Positions 1,766 through 58,841 of a DNA stretch of 64,000 nucleotides are shown piece by piece. A program made the translations under genes and the position numbers. The stretch's first letter is position 1. Every line of letters begins with the position of its first letter. The stretch spans positions 33,790,001 to 33,854,000 of the forward strand of contig OX597818.1 of NCBI GenBank assembly GCA_951406725.2, given 5' to 3'. The notes under the pieces were generated by a model, which saw only the letters and a list, made by a program, of their open reading frames with translations, had not been told where the DNA came from and searched no databases. Origin of the DNA: Octopus vulgaris (taxonomy: Eukaryota).

Positions 1766-2064
1766 GTGTGTGTGTGCGTGTTTGTGTGTGTATGTGTGTG
1801 TGTGCTTGTGTGTGTGTGCTTGTGTGTGTGTGTGCGTGCGTGTTTGTGTGTGCGTGTGTGTAGGTATGTATTTGTGTGTCTGTGTTTGTTCCTTCCACAT
1901 CACTTGACAACCGATGTTAGTGCGTTTATGTCCCCGACACTTAGCAGTTCTGGAAATTAGACCGATAGAATAAGAACTAAGTTAACAAAGAAAAATTCCT
2001 GGGATCGATTAGTTCGAATGAAGGCGGTGCTGTAGCATAGTCAAAATGTCTGAAACAAGTAAAA

Positions 2065-2098
<34 letters not shown>

Positions 2099-2390
2099 TT
2101 TTACTTGTTTCAGACATTTTGACTGCGACCATGCTACAGCACCGCCTTCATTCGAACTAATCGATCCCAGGAATTTTTCTTGTTAACTTAGTTCTTATTC
2201 TATCGGTCTAATTTCCAGAACTGCTAAGTGTCGGGGACATAAACGCACTAACATCGGTTGTCAAGTGATGTGGAAGGAACAAACACAGACACACAAATAC
2301 ATACCTACACACACGCACACACAAACACGCACGCACACACACAAGCACACACATACACAAGCCACACACACACATACACACACATATATA
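1766..2390. repeat. Fold-back inverted duplication of a SINE family B 3' half around a (TA)n spacer
   Basis: 1766-2068 and 2095-2390 are near-perfect reverse complements; ORFs 1766+ and 2208- end in the same peptide. Confidence 0.9.
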
Positions 2391-3320
2391 TAGTGATAAT
2401 TTACAAAAGACGAAGACGAGTGTGGAAACAAAAAACAGATGTATTAGTGAGAAAGTCTTTTTCGTCTCGAGCCTACGCTCTTCGACAGAATGGAACAAAG
2501 AAATAAACAGGGAGAGAAAATAGAAAAATGTTTAATGGCTAGCGATCTATCGTGGCGAATGCTGAATAAAGGTGTCATACGGGAGAGCTAGGAAGAAGGG
2601 GAGATAATAAAGTAGTGGTGATCCCAAAACGAATGGGCACGTGCGTGTGTATGTGACATCGTCTATATGCGTGTTGAAGGGGGCTGGTGACCTTGACGTG
2701 TGCGTGTGTGCATATGTAGGTGTGTGGATGATGGTGTCGGTGTTGGGAAGTGGTCAGTGCTAGTGTGTGCGCTACTGTGGCTGCTGGGAAGTAGTCAATG
2801 CTAGAGTGTGCGAGTATGCGGGGTGGTGTTATATGGTGTGGTGTGGTGTGGTGTTTGTGGTGTGGTGTTGTGTGTGGTGTGGTGTGGTGGTATTGGTGTG
2901 TCGGAAGGCGAGTGGGGGAAGCAAGGGCGGGGTCTAAGGGATAGGGTGAGGGTGGGATGTGATTTATAGGGATGGTGGGTTGGAATGTGTAGGGTGGAGT
3001 AATGAGGGAGGGGTGACGATGAAGGGAGAGGGTGAAAGGGAGAAGGTGGGTAGTAGGGAAGAGAGGAAGTAGGTGTCAGAGCAAAAGAAGAGAGGTGGTT
3101 GGGAGGAAGTAGGTGTCAGAGGAAGTAGGTGTGAGAGGAAGAGAGGAGAGAAGAGGAGAATTAAATGAAGAGGGGAGGAGAGTTGAGCACATGTGGCGCA
3201 AAAGAGCGGAGAGAGAAGACTAATCCCTGCTCACGGCGAAGACGGGAGTCCGGATGTCCCCAGTGCAAGGACAATCCGAACACAGACAAGTGTTGTAATG
3301 AGTGACCGGTAGAGCGGATA
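2390..3320 (-). mobile_element. 5'-truncated Penelope-like retroelement: GIY-YIG C-terminus, 3' UTR and terminal repeat
   Basis: Minus-strand peptide RSTGHSLQHLSVFGLSLHWGHPDSRLRREQGLVFSLRSFAPHVLN resembles the PLE endonuclease C-terminus (H..S.GHS...R..E..IF.L....P.GLN). The terminal segment recurs at 9890-10310 and 59915-60085. Confidence 0.75.
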
Positions 3321-6300
3321 TATACACGCATATACATGAGTGTGTATGTGTGTATGTCTGTGTGTCTGTCTGTCTTTTTATCTGTCTCTGTCCCTCGCCA
3401 CAATTTGACAACCGCTGTTGGTGAGATTATGTCCCATAACTTAGACGTTCGGCAAAAGATAACGCTAGAATAAGTACCAGGTTTTAATAGAATAAGTAAT
3501 GGAATCGATTCATTAGCCTAAAAGGTTTCTTCTAGGTGCTGCTCCAGCATAGCCGCAGTCTGCTAACTGGAGTAAGTAAAAGATAAAAGATATGGGAAAG
3601 GAAGACAGACAAACAGAGCGAGATAATCTTCCCGAACAACATATAAATTCGTTTCGTATCCGCAATACATAAATACATCTCTTGAAATGAAATTTTAAAA
3701 CTGACATAAGAGTTAATTAGTTTTTTTCTTTTTCCATTAAAATTTCATTTGTAGTATAATCTAGCATACAGAATTGCATGCTAAACTTCCTCAATTAATA
3801 ACGGCATGTTTCATTTCGTTAATCGATACCTTTTTCCTTGTTAGATTGTTCTTCTCACTTTTTCCTCCTTTATTTTATATTCTCTCTAAATAGATAATAA
3901 TGCGTTGAGTAGAAATATCAATATTTCCATACTGCTTCGTGAATAATTTCGCTATAAAATACTACGAATCATTATATACTACTCGATAAAGAACTTGTAT
4001 GTCTATCAAAATTCCATTATTACGTGAATATTTTTATATCATTCCATATAGTTCGTTATTTATAATAATACAGCACAAAATTAATATGTATAAAGTAAAT
4101 CTTATTCGTTCTTATTTTATGCCTTTTTTCTCATTTAATTACCCATATTCTCTTAAATTTATTTACATTGACGCTAAATTGGCATAATATTGCTGAAAAT
4201 ATATTATATTTAGTTTTATTCGCCTGGTTTGCACACGTCTTCCTATATGTTTTATTCACAACATATTTCATGATATAGTCTTACATCTTTATAGTAAAGT
4301 AAACCAATACTGATTTGTTTCGTGTTATATTAAAAGGCATCTATTTTTCATTTGTCAATAATTGTATTTATAATTTCTTTTGGTTTTTGCATATCGATTT
4401 CATGTACAATTTAATTTCATAATTCTAGATGCTAATTTTAATTCTGCATATATCTTTGAATGTCATCTTCCGCCACATATGCTCTGTCTATCATAAATAG
4501 TAACATTGCCAAGTACAGTGTCAAACAAACCACAATTTTGGAAACTGATTAGATCACAATACCATTCTAATACACACTCCCTTGGGAGCGGAAACAGGAA
4601 ATTCTAACGACCCAGACTATTTTACTGCGTGGCCCGCATTCACAATACCTTGCATAGTACAGTATTAATAGACTTGCATTATTCATAATAATGTGCAGCA
4701 CTTCATTTAATACTATACTTCATTTAATTATTTAAGTAAATTTAATATTATTTTATTTAGAAGTGACAATTCCTGGTTCGAAAAACTACGTCATCCGAAA
4801 GTCTTCGGAAACAAAGGTTCCAGAAAATCAACCCGTATTACTATAGCTGTGTTGACTTTTATTACTGCATCTGCCAATAAACAGTTCTAAGACATAGAAG
4901 TCAGATAGTTAGTGGCAGAAGATAATCTGTTATACTTGAAAAGTACTTATTTTATCGAGGTCGGAAGATTAAAAGTTAAAGTCAAATCCGGCACGATTCG
5001 CAAACAGAAAGTAAAGCAACGCTGTTAAAATACCGCAAGACTATTTTGTCACCACTTGAGCAATTCTATCGATTTTCCGCCTTAGAATTATATAAAATAA
5101 TAGCTTTCTAATTTCGGCATTCTATCAGCAATTTTGAGGGAAGCGCGTTATTGCTTCCAATACGCGAGAGGTACTTTATTTCATCGATCTCAAAAGAGCG
5201 AAACGCAAATTTGACCATGAATTACAACTCAGAAAGTAACTGATAGAAAATATAATGAATAGAATTTTGCCCGACCTTAAACGATTATGCCATTTTGCCG
5301 TCTTCAGAATTATATACATCAGCATGTATATAATTCTGCATCAGCATGGCCACAGCACTGAGCTGAAACTAGAGAAAAAATGGTTGCTTCCTATATATAC
5401 ACCCTGATCGAATTTTTGAGATATGGGTTAGTTAGCTGAATTGAGTCATTACTTGAGTGATACTATTTTTAATCTCCCCTGTAGGAGTGTAAGTCTAAAA
5501 TGAGTTCAGAGTAATTTGCTATTAAGATATCGAAAGCCGAATCAAATACCGCGAGGTGCTGGATCATAGTCGATTATATTGATCTACGATCAAATATTGG
5601 TACATATTTTATTGACCCCAGAAGGAGGAATTATAAAGTAGACCTGAAGAGAATTTGAACACTGTAGCTATAAAGGCACAAATGATTACAGATTGCCATT
5701 TTTCCCATTGTTATAATAAATATATCATTAGAGTTTATTAAGAATGTATCTTAGAAGTCTTTATCCGCGTCGTTATTATTCTTTCTTGTCAGTTGAGATG
5801 AACTGGAAGAAAATAGCAATTATACAATAGTTAATTTGTTTGGCCTAATGTAATATTGTTCCATGAAATTGAATTATTAAATATGGTTTCCTCTTAAATA
5901 AGAACTATTACAAAAGAATAAAAGCAGAAAGAAAGAGATAAAATGGTATCGTGGTGATGTGATGATAAAGAGGAGAAATAGAATTTGAAAGGAACAGAAA
6001 GGCAAAGAATGATAACGATGATGATATTGAGAAAGAGAGAAACAGGGGGAGGTGGATGTAAGAAGAACAAGAGGAAATGATCTAAGAGAAAAGCGAAAAG
6101 GGAAATAGGAACAAAGATGGCAACCGAATTGAAATTATATATTTACTTTCCAATAATACAATATGGCAGAAACGTTAGCTCGCTGGGCGAAATGTCGTCT
6201 GTTCTTTGCGTTCTAAGTTCAAATTCCGCCGAGGTCGACTTTGCCTTTCATCCTTTCGGAGTGGATAGATTAAGCATCAGTTACATACTGCGGTCAGCCT

Positions 6301-18173: not shown

Positions 18174-18214
<41 letters not shown>

Positions 18215-18224
<10 letters not shown>

Positions 18225-18591
18225 TTAGAGACAAAACCACTATTATGCAAATCAAACAAAGAAAGACTTAATCCAATACATAAAAATTTTTATATAAATT
18301 AAATAAAATTAAGTTATCCACTACAATTGTTTCTTGTCACTTCTAAGGACATTCATCAGGTGGTTTTCAGACCTTCTATTCAATTTTAAATTATGAAGTA
18401 ATTTAAAAACAATTGTAGTTTTATTTAATTTATATAATATTTTTTTATGTATTGGATTAAGTCTTTCTTTGTTTGATTTGCATAATAGTGGTTTTGTCTC
18501 TAATTAATATTATATAATATTTTACTATAAAATTGGATTCAATCCTAAATCTGATTTTTCCCTGTAAATTTGGATTTATTCCCTAATATTT

Positions 18592-18600
<9 letters not shown>
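18215..18600. mobile_element. Non-autonomous HHR-bearing PLE-like element with inverted arms, between (TA)n tracts
   Basis: 18215-18330 is an inverted copy of about 18408-18515; HHR in the left arm; (TA)n on both sides. Confidence 0.75.
18318..18363 (-). ncRNA. Type I minimal hammerhead ribozyme
   Basis: Minus strand reads CCAC-CTGATGA-A-TGTC-CTTAGAAGT-GACA-A-GAAAC-AATT-GTA-GTGG: stem I CCAC/GTGG, stem II TGTC/GACA, palindromic stem III, GUA cleavage triplet. Confidence 0.85.
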
Positions 18601-40337: not shown

Positions 40338-40390
<53 letters not shown>

Positions 40391-40393
<3 letters not shown>

Positions 40394-41192
40394 CATTATA
40401 TAAAAGGGCTTAGTAAAATAAATTACTTTGCCGCATACTGAACTCATTAGAAATAGCAGCTAAAAAAACTTTTCTAAAACTATTTCCAATACTTAAAGAA
40501 ATTTAAAGTAATTTATTTTACTAAGCCCTTTTATATAATGTAATAATTTGAATTCGCCTTAAATGGTCCCTTTGCATACTGAATACTTGGTGAAATTGAT
40601 TAATTAATTAATTTTACCCTCAATTGTTGAAATTATAATTCATCTCTCTCTATTTAATGCCTCGGATTTTACCGAAAAAAAGCATGTTGTTTGCTGATTT
40701 TAACCCACGCTGGTGGAAGGGGGAGAGCAGAAATTCTTCGCTTGCATATTTGAATTTGCTGGCACTGTTAGTTTCGAGTAGATCTTCAGAGGCGATGGGA
40801 AGCCGAAAAGGTATGCTCCTACTTTCAGTGTTTTCAAATCCAAACCAGGGAGTTCTGAGCTGATGATAGAAGTGTCGTTTTTGACTAATCTTGAAACGTA
40901 CGTTCTCAAATAACCTTTGCATTTGATTTTTTAATGTTTCTACCCTCATACTTTCGTGAGTTGAATTGAGCAAACACTATATGAGAGAGATTTTCTTTAA
41001 GTATTGGAAATAGTTTTAGAAAAGTTTTTTTAGCTGCTATTTCTAATGAGTTCAGTATGCGGCAAAGTAATTTATTTTACTAAGCCCTTTTATATAATGT
41101 AATAATTTGAATTCGCCTTAAATGGTCCCTTTGCATACTGAATACTTGGTGAAATTGATTAATTAATTAATTTTACCCTCAATTGTTGAAAT
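40391..41192 (+). mobile_element. Non-autonomous PLE/retrozyme-like element: inverted 5' arm, partial tandem repeat and HHR, inserted in (TA)n
   Basis: 40391-40500 is the reverse complement of about 40993-41103; 40505-40633 equals 41064-41192 (period 559 bp); (TA)n on both sides. Confidence 0.85.
40856..40908 (+). ncRNA. Type I hammerhead ribozyme
   Basis: TGAG-CTGATGA-T-AGA-AGT-GTC-GTTTTT-GAC-TAA-TCT-T-GAAAC-GTAC-GTT-CTCA: stem I TGAG/CTCA, palindromic stem III ACGTACGT, GUU triplet. Confidence 0.85.
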
Positions 41193-41346
41193 ATATATAT
41201 ATATATATATATTCTGCTATAGCCACAAGGGCTGAAATTCGAAGTGAAGGGGCTAGTTATTTACATTGGCCTCTGTACTCAACTGGTATTTATTTTATCA
41301 GCCCCAAAAGGTTGGGTCGTAAAGGTAAACTCGGCGGAATTTGAAC

Positions 41347-48431: not shown

Positions 48432-48489
<58 letters not shown>

Positions 48490-48493
<4 letters not shown>

Positions 48494-48830
48494 CAGTTTT
48501 ATTTTTATAACGTGCTTTCACTTCACTACCGAGCGCAGCTCTGTGTGCCTTAGGTATGTGCTGTGATTTGTTGTGATGCTCTGATGGTTATTGTATGGAA
48601 AGTGTTCTGCGTAGGATGTGTGCAGTGCCTAGTAGTGCAATTTTCTGTATGTTATATGTGTTTGTAAGTCCTGGTGTTTTTGTTATGTATTTGTCTGAAT
48701 ATTTTTTTATCATGCCTAAAGCACCTACTATGATAGGAATTGTTTCTGTTTTTAGATTCCACATTCTGGTTACCTCTATTTCCAGGTCTTTGTATTTTGA
48801 GAGTTTTTCCATTTCTTTTAGAGACACGTT
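48490..48830 (-). mobile_element. Short 3' fragment of an R4/Dong-type LINE in (TTA)n
   Basis: Near-identical to the 3' end of 48905-50058 (EKLSKYKDL..GTAHILRRTL). Confidence 0.88.
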
Positions 48831-48904
48831 GTTAGTCCCTCCCCACCCCGTCAAATATCATGCCTTGTGCCTACAGCAGATAAAATAACTATTATTATTA
48901 TTAT

Positions 48905-50058
48905 TCAGTAGTTTTATTTTTATAGCGTGCTTTCACTTCACTACCGAGCGCAGCTCTGTGTGCCTTGGGTATGTGCTGTGATTTGTTGTGATGCTCTGAT
49001 GGTTATTGTATGGAAAGTGTTCTGCGTAGGATGTGTGCAGTGCCTAGTAGTGCAATTTTCTGTATGTTATATGTGTTTGTAAGTCCTGGTGTTTTTGTTA
49101 TGTATTTGTCTGAATATTTTTTTATCATGCCTAATGCACCTACTATGATAGGAATTGTTTCTGTTTTCAGGTTCCACATTCTAGTTACCTCTATTTCCAG
49201 GTCTTTGTATTTTGAGAGTTTCTCCATTTCTTTTAGAGACACGTTGTCATCTGCCGGTATTGATACATCAATTAGAAAGCATTTTTTTTCTTCATGATCT
49301 CTGACAACTATATCTGGTCTGTTGGCCTTAATTTCTCTATCTGTGTGTATCGGCATATCCCAGAGTATGGTTGCTTTCTCGTTTTCTGTGACCTTTTCTG
49401 GTGTGTGCCTATACCATCTTTTTTCTGTTGTTATTCCATAATGTTGGCATAGCTTCCAGTGTATGTAGGTTCCAACTCTGTCATGTCTGTGAATATATTC
49501 CTTCTTAGCCAGGACTGGGCAGCTAGAGATAATATGATTTATTGCTTCTTGTCCATCTCCACATATTCTGCAGTTACTTGTAATATTTCTTTTCATTACA
49601 TGTTTTTGGTAATTTCTGGTGGGGAGGCTTTGGTCTTGTGCTGCAATTAAAAATCCCTCTGTTTCTGCTTTGAGTCCTGAGCTTCTCAACCATTGCTGGG
49701 ATTTTTCTTTGTCTATTTCTTTTGCGTTTAGTTTAGTGCAGTATTTACCATGAAGGGGCTTTTCTTGCCATCGTTTTATCATGGCTCGTTGCTGTTCTAT
49801 TTTTAGTTTGGATTTCATTTGTTTTATAGCTTTTGTTGTTTCTTCATCATCTTCTTCTTCTTCTTTGTGTTTATTAGGTGGTATGATTTCTTGTTTGTAT
49901 TTGTCAGCTTCCTTAAATACTGAGAACAGTTTTTTTGTTTTGCTCGTGTTTTGCTGCTATCTGGATCAGTTTTCCTTCCTTCTGAAGTAGGTATTTTTGC
50001 AGTCCTATGGTGGTTATTTTATAGTAGTTTTCCAGCTGTATAAGGCCTCTACCACCTT
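48905..50058 (-). mobile_element. 5'-truncated R4/Dong-type non-LTR retrotransposon (CCHC knuckle and restriction-like endonuclease)
   Basis: ORF 49003-49818 has CRICG..EAINHIISSC, RHD, RPDIVV..LIDVSIP and EKLSKY; (TTA)n at both ends. Confidence 0.92.
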
Positions 50059-52881: not shown

Positions 52882-53107
52882 TAACGAATTTAAAAAAAAA
52901 AATTTGTTAGCTTGCCTTCCTCAGTTTCAGCACGACGTGTATTCATACTGAATGTATATTGTAATGTGGTGATTCACGATTTAAAATCTATTCTCAGCAT
53001 TTTGGCATAGAAATCTTTTTTCTTTTGCTCTTCTTTATAATTATGTATAAATGTACATAGGTATGTATATATATAAATATATGTTTGCGTATATACAGGA
53101 GCAGGGA

Positions 53108-53427
53108 GATCTCCGTCGGTTACGACGACGAGGGTCCCAGCTGATACGATCAACGAAACAGCTTGCTCGTGAAATTAACGTGAAGTGGCTGAGCACTCCA
53201 CAGACACGTGTGCCCCTAACGTAGTTCTCAGGGAGATTCAGCCTAACACAGAGTGTGACAAGGCTGGCCCTTTGAAATACAGACACTACTCATTTTTGCC
53301 AGTTGAGTGGGTTGTAGCAACATGAAATAAAGTGTCTTGCTCAAGGACACAACACGTCGCCGGGAATTGAACTCACGGTCTTACGATCGCGAGCCGAATG
53401 CCCTAGCCACTAAGTCACGCGGCCTTA
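53108..53427 (-). mobile_element. tRNA-derived CORE-like SINE family C
   Basis: Minus strand has GTGACTTAGTGGCTAGGG, GAGTTCAATTCCC and TGTGTCCTTGAGCAAGACACTT. Confidence 0.88.
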
Positions 53428-53530
53428 CTGTATATATATAAATACATGTATGTATATGTATATAATTATATATAGTTATGTGTGTGTATATATATATATA
53501 CACACAGATGTACATTTACAGGTATATATA

Positions 53531-57065: not shown

Positions 57066-57159
57066 CCTGTAAATGTATATCCGTATATATATATATACAA
57101 ACACACACATAAATATATATAATTATATACATATACATACATGTATTTATATATACAGT

Positions 57160-57480
57160 AAAGCCACGTGGCTTAGTGGCTAGGGCATTCGGCTCGCGAT
57201 CGTAAGGCAATCAGTTCAATTCCCGGCGACGCGTTGTGTCCTTGAGCAAGACACTTTATTTCACGTTGCTCCAGCCCACTCAGCTGGCGAAAATGAGTAG
57301 AACGTGTATTTCAATGGGCCAGCCTTCTCACACTCTATGTCACGCTGAATCTCCCTGAGAACTACATTTACACTACACGTGTCTGTGGAGTGCTCAACCA
57401 CTTGCACGTTAATTTCACTAGCAAGCTGTTTCGTTGATCGTATCAGCTGGGACTCTCGTCCTCGTAACCGACGGAGTTCT
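57160..57480 (+). mobile_element. SINE family C, part of an inverted duplication of 53087-53650
   Basis: Match to 53108-53427 including flanks. Confidence 0.88.
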
Positions 57481-57505
57481 CCCCGCTCCTGTATATACGC
57501 ACACA

Positions 57506-58790
57506 TATGCTAGAAATAGACGTCAAACTTGCCATTTACCACGAAGAATGTGTTCTCAAGAAAAAATTCAGCAAAGAAACAAAGTGTAAAAATAAGCAAG
57601 ACAAATGAAAATATACGAAATAAAAAACGATTACCTATGTACTAAATAGTTTCACTTGTTAATATTTACGTATATGGATACGCAACATCTGCGATTTTGA
57701 CGTCTATTTCTAGCATACAGGCTGTCCACTATTAGTGGTCATTCCTCTAAATTTCGGATTTTTTTTAAAATATGCTAGGCCACTGGTTTTCATTGATTAA
57801 TATCAATTTTTACCCTTATTTAATTTTATACATAAATATGAGAGAGTGACCACTATGAGGTTCACTCTAGTGCTAAAATAGATCCGCTAATGGTATAGCC
57901 ACTAAAAGTTGTTTCCAAGAAGAAATACCACTACATTTAACGTAAGGTAAGTGAAATATAACGAAAAAAATATATATAACGAAAAAAATAGATAAATAGA
58001 TATCTATTTTTTTCGTTATATTTCACTTAACTTACGTTAAATGTAGTGGTATTTCTTCTTGGAAACAACTTTTAGTGTCTATACCATTAGCGGATCTATT
58101 TTTAGCACTAGAGTGAACCACATAGTGGTCACTCTCTCATATTTATGTATAAATTTGTATTTTATCACTTGGTTTTTATGTGCTAAGCCACTTGGTATAA
58201 AATTGATGGTATTATTAAATTAATATCAAATTTTTCACCCTCATTTATAAACTTATTTAATTTTAAATAAAAATTGTTCCCTAACCGGTAAATTAACTGC
58301 TGTAGTTTATTAACTGCAGAGTAATTTCCGATTTCAGCGCGCCAGAGTGAAGGCATTTGAAAGATACACATAAATATAATTTGTGGAGTTTTATACACGC
58401 TGGATTTCGGTCGAGAGCCCTGTATCTAGTTCTAGAATTTGTATTTCGTAAACGACAGACTATGCTGACGATCTTGCAGATGTTTGCGTATCAATATACG
58501 TAAATATTAACAAGTGAAACTAATTAGTACATAGGTAATCGTTTTTTATTTCGTATATTTTCATTTGTCTTACTTATTTTTACACTTTGGTTTTTTGCTG
58601 AATTTTTTCTTGAGAACACATTCTTCGTGGTAAATAGCGAGTTTGACGACTATTTCTAGCATACAGGATGTCCACTATTAATGGTCATCCCTCTAAATTT
58701 TGTATGTATAAAATTTTTAATCTTTGTATTATTTTTTTAAATATGCTAGGCCACTTATTTTAATTGATTAATATCAATTTCTACCATTAT

Positions 58791-58800
<10 letters not shown>
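57506..58800 (+). mobile_element. Composite non-autonomous PLE/retrozyme-like element with a nested sister element
   Basis: Inverted arm 57506-57693 vs 58474-58663; direct repeat 57696-57828 vs 58642-58800; internal palindrome 57825-58153; ends in (TA)n. Confidence 0.8.
58460..58534 (+). ncRNA. Type I hammerhead ribozyme with an extended stem II
   Basis: CTATG-CTGACGA-T-CTTG-CAG-ATGTTTGCGTAT-CAAT-ATACGTAAATAT-TAA-CAAG-T-GAAAC-TAATTA-GTA-CATAG: stem I CTATG/CATAG, palindromic stem III ACTAATTAGT, GUA triplet. Confidence 0.9.

Positions 58801-58841
<41 letters not shown>

Follow-up and report, generated by a model that had tools for sequence, protein, structure and literature searches.

A two-armed copy of one hammerhead-bearing repeat at the unit junction of its sister repeat in Octopus vulgaris, best read as one retrozyme inserted in another

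We analysed a 64,000-nucleotide stretch of Octopus vulgaris DNA (assembly GCA_951406725.2, contig OX597818.1, positions 33,790,001 to 33,854,000 of the forward strand), which is called the window throughout and numbered from its first letter; labels of the form L### denote loci collected from the same genome (2.8 Gb) for comparison. Every part of a nested repeat locus that the initial annotation had listed is present in the window at 57506-58800, and the anatomy of this locus is confirmed as genuine (Table 1). The outer element, here host A, begins where an older SINE-like repeat leaves off. The TA-rich tail of that repeat appears to be the landing site of A; another copy of the SINE-like repeat, on the minus strand at 53079-53430, matches it through 57508 and then runs into TA-rich sequence instead. 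The inverted arm, the 3'-end repeat, the hammerhead motif and the (TA)n tract of A were all located by sequence comparison within the window: the arm at 57506-57692 is the inverse of 58476-58663 at 95% identity, and the 3' piece at 57691-57828 is repeated in direct orientation at 58637-58799. A had been said to share its plan with 40391-41192, and the same plan, with a hammerhead motif of its own, is indeed found at 40389-41197. The second element, insert B, sits at the junction of two host A units, that is, within the host insertion and not at its outer end.

Table 1. Features of the nested locus and its upstream neighbour (window coordinates; A and B numbers are unit positions)
Feature	Coordinates	Strand	Remarks
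SINE-like repeat, older	57155-57505	+	tRNA-promoter-like boxes read from sequence; context only, outside the finding
Host A inverted arm	57506-57692	-	Unit positions 398 to 211; includes 3' half of hammerhead motif
Host A direct partial unit	57691-57828	+	Positions 372-534 with ~28 bp deleted; stops at the family's long end
Left copy of 14-bp duplication	57815-57828	+	Final 14 bases of an A unit
Insert B inverted arm	57829-58001	-	Short end (~B391-395) to B238; 18-bp and 8-bp stutter beside axis
Insert B direct arm	58002-58251	+	B238 to long end B485; without ribozyme
Right copy of 14-bp duplication	58252-58265	+	Host-derived; putative target-site duplication
Full host A unit	58266-58799	+	534 bp, 30% GC
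Type I hammerhead motif of host A	58460-58534	+	Predicted cut after GTA at 58529
(TA)n tract	58798-58838		At the host's long end

Further repeats lie elsewhere in the window. The copy at 40389-41197 belongs to another family, E, and has arms that are 99-100% identical, so it is very young; its tail measures 88 bp, its ends align with those of A and B, and relatives are found at L100, L116, L122, L163 and L196. Yet another hammerhead-bearing family is represented on the minus strand at 18190-18600, with its motif at 18359, between two (TA)n tracts, and relatives of it adjoin L136 and L147. A 415-bp tandem duplication, 97% identical, follows a (TAT)n tract at 48475-49247. Across 40 arbitrary 10-kb stretches of the genome (L086-L125), hammerhead-like motifs of several families occur at 7 places in 6 of the 40 stretches, one of these places (L111) having three copies, and the same stretches contain 238 long TA tracts. 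Hammerhead-bearing repeats of several families are common in this genome.

Genome searches with the host A unit and with the right half of insert B returned 2986 and 2337 first-look candidates, respectively; in each search 40 were scored and 30 fetched. Exact matches to the family ends number 273 genome-wide for A and roughly 200 for B (104 on the plus strand), and tandem dimers are also present. By these comparisons A and B are sister repeat families of hundreds to thousands of copies. They align across the whole unit, with 322 of 442 aligned bases identical and a score of 215 against a best shuffled score of 116.5 (200 shuffles), and the motifs that the initial annotation had seen as common to host and insert are thus real. 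The A unit is ~530 bp long (30% GC) and the B unit 485 bp (32% GC), both below 50% GC. An earlier estimate of about 509 bp for the monomer has to be revised, as it reflects the ~28-bp deletion in the left A piece, a deletion confined to that piece among 32 aligned rows. No ATG-started frame of at least 40 aa lies inside the full A unit (58266-58799), the only frames at the locus being two short minus-strand ones (81 and 62 aa) that each cross an element border, and no frame with reverse transcriptase (RT) and GIY-YIG was found in A or B.

Each family has two fixed ends, one long and one short, that lie ~90 bases apart and so delimit a tail of ~90 bp. With queries that favoured long ends, two 10-base bins take up 53 of 76 A ends, and three such bins take up 69 of 76 B ends. 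TA-rich sequence adjoins 52 of the 76 A ends and 61 of the 76 B ends. The short ends of A, B and the family at 40391 align with each other. Just before the short end, a hairpin that contains one of the motifs common to A and B folds in both families (z -2.9 and -2.35; two windows), and the same hairpin in the deleted left A copy gives z -0.76. Divergence from the majority sequence is 3.4% in B versus 5.7% in A, measured on top-scoring copies only, and among these copies B is the younger family.

The 14-base sequence CTTATTTAATTTTA has two matches in the 64-kb window, 57815-57828 and 58252-58265, and no others, which places both copies of the 14-bp duplication that had been proposed to flank the insert. 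At 29 of 29 other B loci (L025 and L030 among them being one insertion) the 14-mer is absent past the 3' end, where (TA)n, other flanking sequence or the next B unit follows. Intact A junctions carry it once, before the unit start, as seen in 42 exact pattern matches genome-wide, and 28 A loci out of 93 de-duplicated loci align across the unit junction without an insert. Because the 14-mer lies beyond the end of B copies and is present once at intact A junctions, both copies are host sequence, and removal of the insert together with one copy therefore restores an ordinary junction. The 14-bp duplication is best read as a target-site duplication. Among the loci examined it is the only clear non-microsatellite duplication of such length; at most other loci target duplications are hidden in microsatellite. 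Candidate duplications of 9-11 bp at L006, L129 and L145 proved ambiguous.

A pattern that spans the join of the A end and the B arm has a single match in the genome, at this locus, and no chimeric junction was found elsewhere among the 40 best-scored of 2143 candidates and of 3010 candidates. One partial junction match, at L085, turned out to be an A tandem behind unrelated sequence. The insert is not a feature of all family copies, there being one A-B join versus 42 intact A junctions. The unique join and the host-derived 14-mers together uphold the original proposal that a sister element was inserted within the host and flanked by a 14-bp duplication. An orthologous empty allele was not seen: a joint of 57814 to 58253 in run X1 was considered and set aside, with 4 other letters in between and a side of 22 bases, and is probably another A copy.

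The insert had first been described as 437 bp long, with a palindrome at 57825-58153. The palindrome was found again at 57822-58156. The B segment is likewise real, but its own sequence amounts to 423 bp, to 58251, the final 14 bp being host. Among 30 two-armed B loci, 24 have one arm that starts from the long end (~B485) and another that starts from the short end (B380-402), and the outer ends of insert B are this standard pair. The same end-pair rule is followed by 11 of 24 two-armed A loci, and the arm of host A begins at A398, not at the usual A445. By comparison of copies, the 330-bp palindrome is the usual two-armed, head-to-head insertion form of these families. A reading of the palindrome as a MITE was rejected, since the palindrome represents a clipped portion of a larger unit, with an axis that differs from copy to copy. 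Both arms of insert B stop at B238, and an 18-bp and an 8-bp stutter lie beside the axis (57956-58001). The arms differ at 4 of 151 positions and are each other's nearest relatives (the next nearest copy differs at 6 of 150), which argues that they arose in one event. At its outer end the inverted arm has 4-7 bases of microhomology with the host.

Other loci show variations on this form. Small pure palindromes without a ribozyme are present at L130, L145, L146 and L155. Several short-end arms (L003, L021, L024, L129, L132 and L008) extend across the ribozyme and terminate at the unit junction or slightly beyond it, where the start site of the other arm is located; two primers on one circular or dimeric RNA would fit this arrangement. 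At L008:1142-1390 and L076:1666-1896, ~240 bp of other repeat-like sequence lies at the centre between the two arms. At L026, L071 and L072, a piece that ends at the long end directly abuts another clipped piece of its own family, reflecting either a re-start or same-family nesting.

The hammerhead motif of host A consists of helix I (58460-64/58530-34), the core CTGACGA, a long helix II, GAAA and a short helix III with a palindromic loop; for motifs with such a helix III, a dimer may be needed for cleavage, according to the part of PMC7229834 consulted. Many copies of both families contain a type I hammerhead motif. When 22 related A copies are compared, 97.4% of cells keep the hammerhead pairing, and two-sided changes affect helix I in 5 copies, helix II in 2 and helix III in 2, although the mutual relatedness of these copies reduces the changes to few independent events. 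An Rfam search of the window at the gathering score returned no match, and in the minimum-energy fold of the host A motif helix II forms but the full hammerhead does not. The label 'ribozyme' is therefore used for A and B on the strength of motif and covariation, and cleavage is a prediction.

In B the predicted cut falls after unit position 229. Insert B spans B238-485 in direct and ~B395-238 in inverted orientation and hence has no ribozyme, and its direct arm starts 8 bases 3' of the predicted cut. B pieces with 5' ends at unit positions 226-238 were noted at L003, L015, L021, L024 and L147 as well as at window position 58002. Five other B pieces thus begin between 3 bases before and 12 bases after the predicted cut, a pattern not seen in A. 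Of the B pieces that start within 100 bases of the cut, 7 of 35 do so in a 16-base window (p = 0.02), in a biased sample where 2 of the 7 come from this locus and 4 from a query that begins at that position; the same test on A pieces gave 2 of 26 (p = 0.62). A pile-up of 5' ends at the predicted ribozyme cut of B is only hinted at by these counts.

Divergence within the locus bears on the order of events. The host A arm differs from its own unit at 8 of 187 positions, and among 30 copies compared this unit is tied with one other as its nearest relative. The left direct A piece differs from its own unit at 11 of 130 positions versus 9 of 138 for other copies, and the left and right A pieces carry common subfamily markers. 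The B arms differ from each other at 3 of 142 positions and the A parts at 8 of 184 and 11 of 130. An order in which A inserted first, into the TA tail of the SINE, and B followed would fit these values and the smaller divergence of B copies from their majority, with modest power.

Overall, the best reading of the locus is that of one non-autonomous, Penelope-mobilised retrozyme inserted in another. Probably, a 5'-clipped, head-to-head copy of B was inserted at a later time into the A unit junction by a Penelope-type RT/endonuclease, which likely chose a TA-like site rather than the end of a sister element. We propose that staggered nicks 14 bases apart opened the host A junction. The bottom-strand end would have primed one cDNA at the long end of B, and the top-strand end, which finishes in TTTA and would be complementary to the RNA at the short end, a second one. 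Both cDNAs would then have stopped at B238 and been joined after two slips, giving rise to the palindrome and its stutter. Priming from both strands of the target would be expected to yield the standard pair of outer ends that B has. The arm may instead stem from fold-back or self-priming, and self-priming is favoured for head-to-head palindromes in the portion of Arkhipova et al. 2013 (PMC3846280) consulted. As reverse transcription by an Anolis element starts in vitro without target homology, according to the text consulted of PMC11167929, the microhomology at the outer end of B may be incidental. By a simple rule the A unit has 7 TA-like sites; the junction (A534) is one of them, so that landing there needs no special rule.

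The initial annotation had gone further and suggested that these elements preferentially insert at each other's AT-rich termini. This preference is unsupported: four tests found none, although they were small, based on exact matches and restricted to some orientations, and with such low power could miss a two-fold preference. Genome-wide, A-B joins and intact A junctions stand at 1 versus 42, and 28 A and 17 B loci cross the unit junction with 0 inserts, these loci having been selected by matching across the junction. Of 273 A ends in TA, 1 has a sister end on the far side of its (TA)n tail, where ~0.8 would be expected; for B ends this is seen at 1 place (L207) among roughly 200. TA-tract starts in general give a background of 4 in 1333, of which 2 in 886 come from arbitrary stretches. 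An A end followed by a clade end on the other strand within ~60 bases gave 5 matches at 3 places, which are two A-A mirror pairs and one sister (L204). We also clustered the flanks of 724 TA tracts from family loci, the 40 arbitrary 10-kb stretches, the window and GIY-YIG loci, and removed 21 duplicate loci and this locus's own copies before the test. The far flank was a Penelope-like or hammerhead-bearing end for 3 of 106 A/B tracts, compared with 29 of 568 tracts from the window and the arbitrary stretches (p = 0.46). Repeats of whatever kind made up the far flank for 38 of 106 versus 236 of 568 (p = 0.28). Clustering missed single cases such as L011; inclusion of L011 and L085 by eye raises the 3 to ~5 and leaves the picture unchanged.

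Same-family mirror pairs, arranged tail to tail around one (TA)n tract, were observed at L203:1460-1589, L206:1391-1680 and L037:2956-3522, with arms that are 94%, 99% and 98% identical, respectively, and closer to each other than to the reference unit of the window. Two A-A mirror pairs among 273 A ends are far above chance co-insertion, and such pairs likely represent an inverted duplication or conversion centred on (TA)n, or an assembly artefact.

These tests bear on the alternative that the insertion machinery recognises the long-end/junction sequence common to the sisters, so that they land preferentially in each other's junctions. For it speak the exact coincidence of the top-strand break with A's own long end, the homology of A and B at the long end and junction, and the TA tracts common to sister elements at L011, L085, L110, L196, L204 and L207. 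The latter are, however, no more than shared TA/AT-rich targeting predicts, which suffices for them, and the single join against 42 intact junctions, the 28 A and 17 B junction-crossing loci with 0 inserts, and the counts of 1 in 273 (~0.8 expected) and 3 in 106 (versus 29 in 568) all weigh against the idea; the target used in vitro was the junction itself and cannot show a preference. We regard this alternative as unlikely. Doubtful to a similar degree is its fuller form, in which a helper enzyme targets conserved long-end/junction DNA of the retrozyme clade so that new copies home into old ones, and in which both cDNAs may in addition have ended by run-off close to the 5' terminus of an RNA cut by the ribozyme. 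If such homing were true, partial tandems would be built after insertion, and chimeric transcription units would arise in which the promoter and ribozyme of one family drive the ends of another. If both cDNAs ran off at the ribozyme-cut 5' end, the locus would be genomic evidence that cleaved RNA is the template.

In a further alternative, a single integration with template jumps would have passed from A to B RNA, folded back and returned to A at its usual start site, and the 14 bases would be the overlap of the re-start rather than a target duplication. Re-starts do occur, judging by the same-family clipped pieces at L026, L071 and L072, and A and B are related and probably have a common helper. 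Yet the fold-back would have to end by chance at the standard short end of B, two inverted arms are present here, of which each is what one insertion typically leaves, and the B arms are closer (3/142) than the A parts (8/184 and 11/130), although arm-to-arm conversion could explain this last difference. Together this makes a single integration improbable. Even harder to sustain are three side-by-side insertions, of a short A, of B and of a second A that by chance starts 14 bases before the unit start. Although A copies at L049, L055, L056 and L059 begin within ~15 bases of the unit start, and the right unit is not the nearest relative of the left direct A piece, the pieces are not separated by any (TA)n remnants, the subfamily markers of the two A parts agree, and an arm, a partial unit and a full unit are the ordinary plan of a single A insertion.

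The assembly of the palindrome was compared with contigs of public runs. A 56-base exact contig (57799-57854), found in runs X1 and X2 of two studies, covers the left junction with 30 + 26 bases on its two sides, just under a 31-base rule; run X1 may be the source sample. An 82-base contig from run X3 of a third study (57948-58029) contains the stutter and the turn with 2 differences, and extends 54 bases to one side of the symmetry axis and 28 to the other, the shorter side again under the 31-base rule. The right junction is crossed by no contig among the matches listed, and the unique flank likewise lacks cover in runs X3 and X4; such gaps carry no weight either way. An assembly artefact from fold-back reads is hardly credible: although none of the contigs among the matches listed spans the whole insert and the support comes from short-read contigs, the arms differ at 3-4 sites plus indels, the left junction is found in contigs of X1 and X2 and the turn in one of X3, and 30 other B loci are also two-armed.

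The genome has many intact frames with RT and GIY-YIG that end in (TA)n. We screened 30 GIY-YIG loci and 15 longer stretches, drawn from 148 matches among 150 scored out of 6136 candidates, for a partner of A and B. No convincing pLTR-like match to A or B was found in these 45 loci and stretches; the intact Penelope-like family gave 29 bases on the opposite strand (E = 0.026). One young autonomous Penelope-like family encodes a 765-aa RT with C-terminal GIY-YIG and a CxxxxCxxC linker; its frames lie at L186:445-1485 and 1793-4090, the repeat ends near 5175, family copies end in (TA)n, and many equal 781-codon frames are among the genome matches. The upstream frame of the L186 family, of 346 aa, has no Pfam assignment, and in the vicinity of L186:5066-5105 a stretch resembles a hammerhead but has a non-canonical core. 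The linker of this family appears Neptune/Nematis-like by the portion of PMC8557442 consulted.

Animal retrozymes have been argued to be non-autonomous Penelope derivatives (bioRxiv 10.64898/2026.07.22.740005; PMC7229834). As far as the consulted parts of these two sources describe them, metazoan non-LTR retrozymes resemble A and B: a tandemly repeated unit that is non-coding and low in GC holds a single type I hammerhead motif, monomers and dimers are dispersed in large numbers, and the duplication exceeds 4 bp, measuring 14 bp for B at this locus. On all sequence features A and B would belong to this group, with hammerhead cleavage predicted only. Their units of 485-534 bp exceed the 150-450 bp given in PMC7229834 and lie within the 51-972 bp of bioRxiv 10.64898/2026.07.22.740005. 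Two-armed insertions, fixed end pairs and nesting, all seen in A and B, are not described for retrozymes in the portions consulted of either source.

Penelope-like insertions comprise partial tandems, an inverted 5'-truncated copy and an optional tail, with a (TA)n bias in Neptune and Naiad (PMC8557442, in part), and the Anolis protein, in purified form, cleaves AT-rich DNA and extends each of its strands, with two internal RNA start sites that define the tail (PMC11167929, in part). A and B share the partial tandem, the inverted 5'-truncated copy, the optional tail between two ends, the (TA)n or AT-rich targets and, presumably, the extension of both strands. In contrast to the elements of these two sources, A and B have no ORF and a tail of ~90 bp, not 30-40 bp. 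TA-like sequence is found right at the A and B ends, in contrast to the Anolis start sites, which have no homology to the target (PMC11167929), and A and B carry a hammerhead motif, whereas Naiads do not in the text consulted of PMC8557442.

The closest parallel comes from Adineta vaga, where Pen2a_Av lies inside Pen3 with an inverted pLTR and a 9-bp duplication (PMC3846280). As at our locus, related elements are nested, with an inverted pLTR and a palindrome at the inverted junction. Target duplications, 9 bp for Pen2a_Av and 8-10 bp for others, are attributed in the consulted part of that paper to a liking for simple AT-rich sequence. Pen2a_Av bears ORFs and sits in an asparagine-coding stretch, whereas here two non-coding families, a 14-bp duplication and landing at a unit junction are involved. 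Our literature search found no paper that joins a retrozyme with nested insertion, and a search on octopus, Penelope and hammerhead found nothing on these repeats by title or start of abstract; supplementary family lists of PMC8557442 or the 2026 preprint could hold these families or their partner. The locus clearly exemplifies an already known type of element, and Penelope-in-Penelope nesting with an inverted arm and a duplication has already been published (PMC3846280, in part).

Target duplication and nick positions are unreadable in (TA)n, which surrounds the majority of copies of these families. Here, the target is not a microsatellite and its empty state is known from dozens of sister junctions, so that the footprint of the insertion can be read directly: a 14-base stagger, one arm per fixed end, microhomology over a few bases and an endpoint common to the two arms. 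The locus establishes no new targeting rule; it is a rare, readable footprint, and may serve directly as a substrate for tests of two-strand priming by a Penelope-type enzyme.
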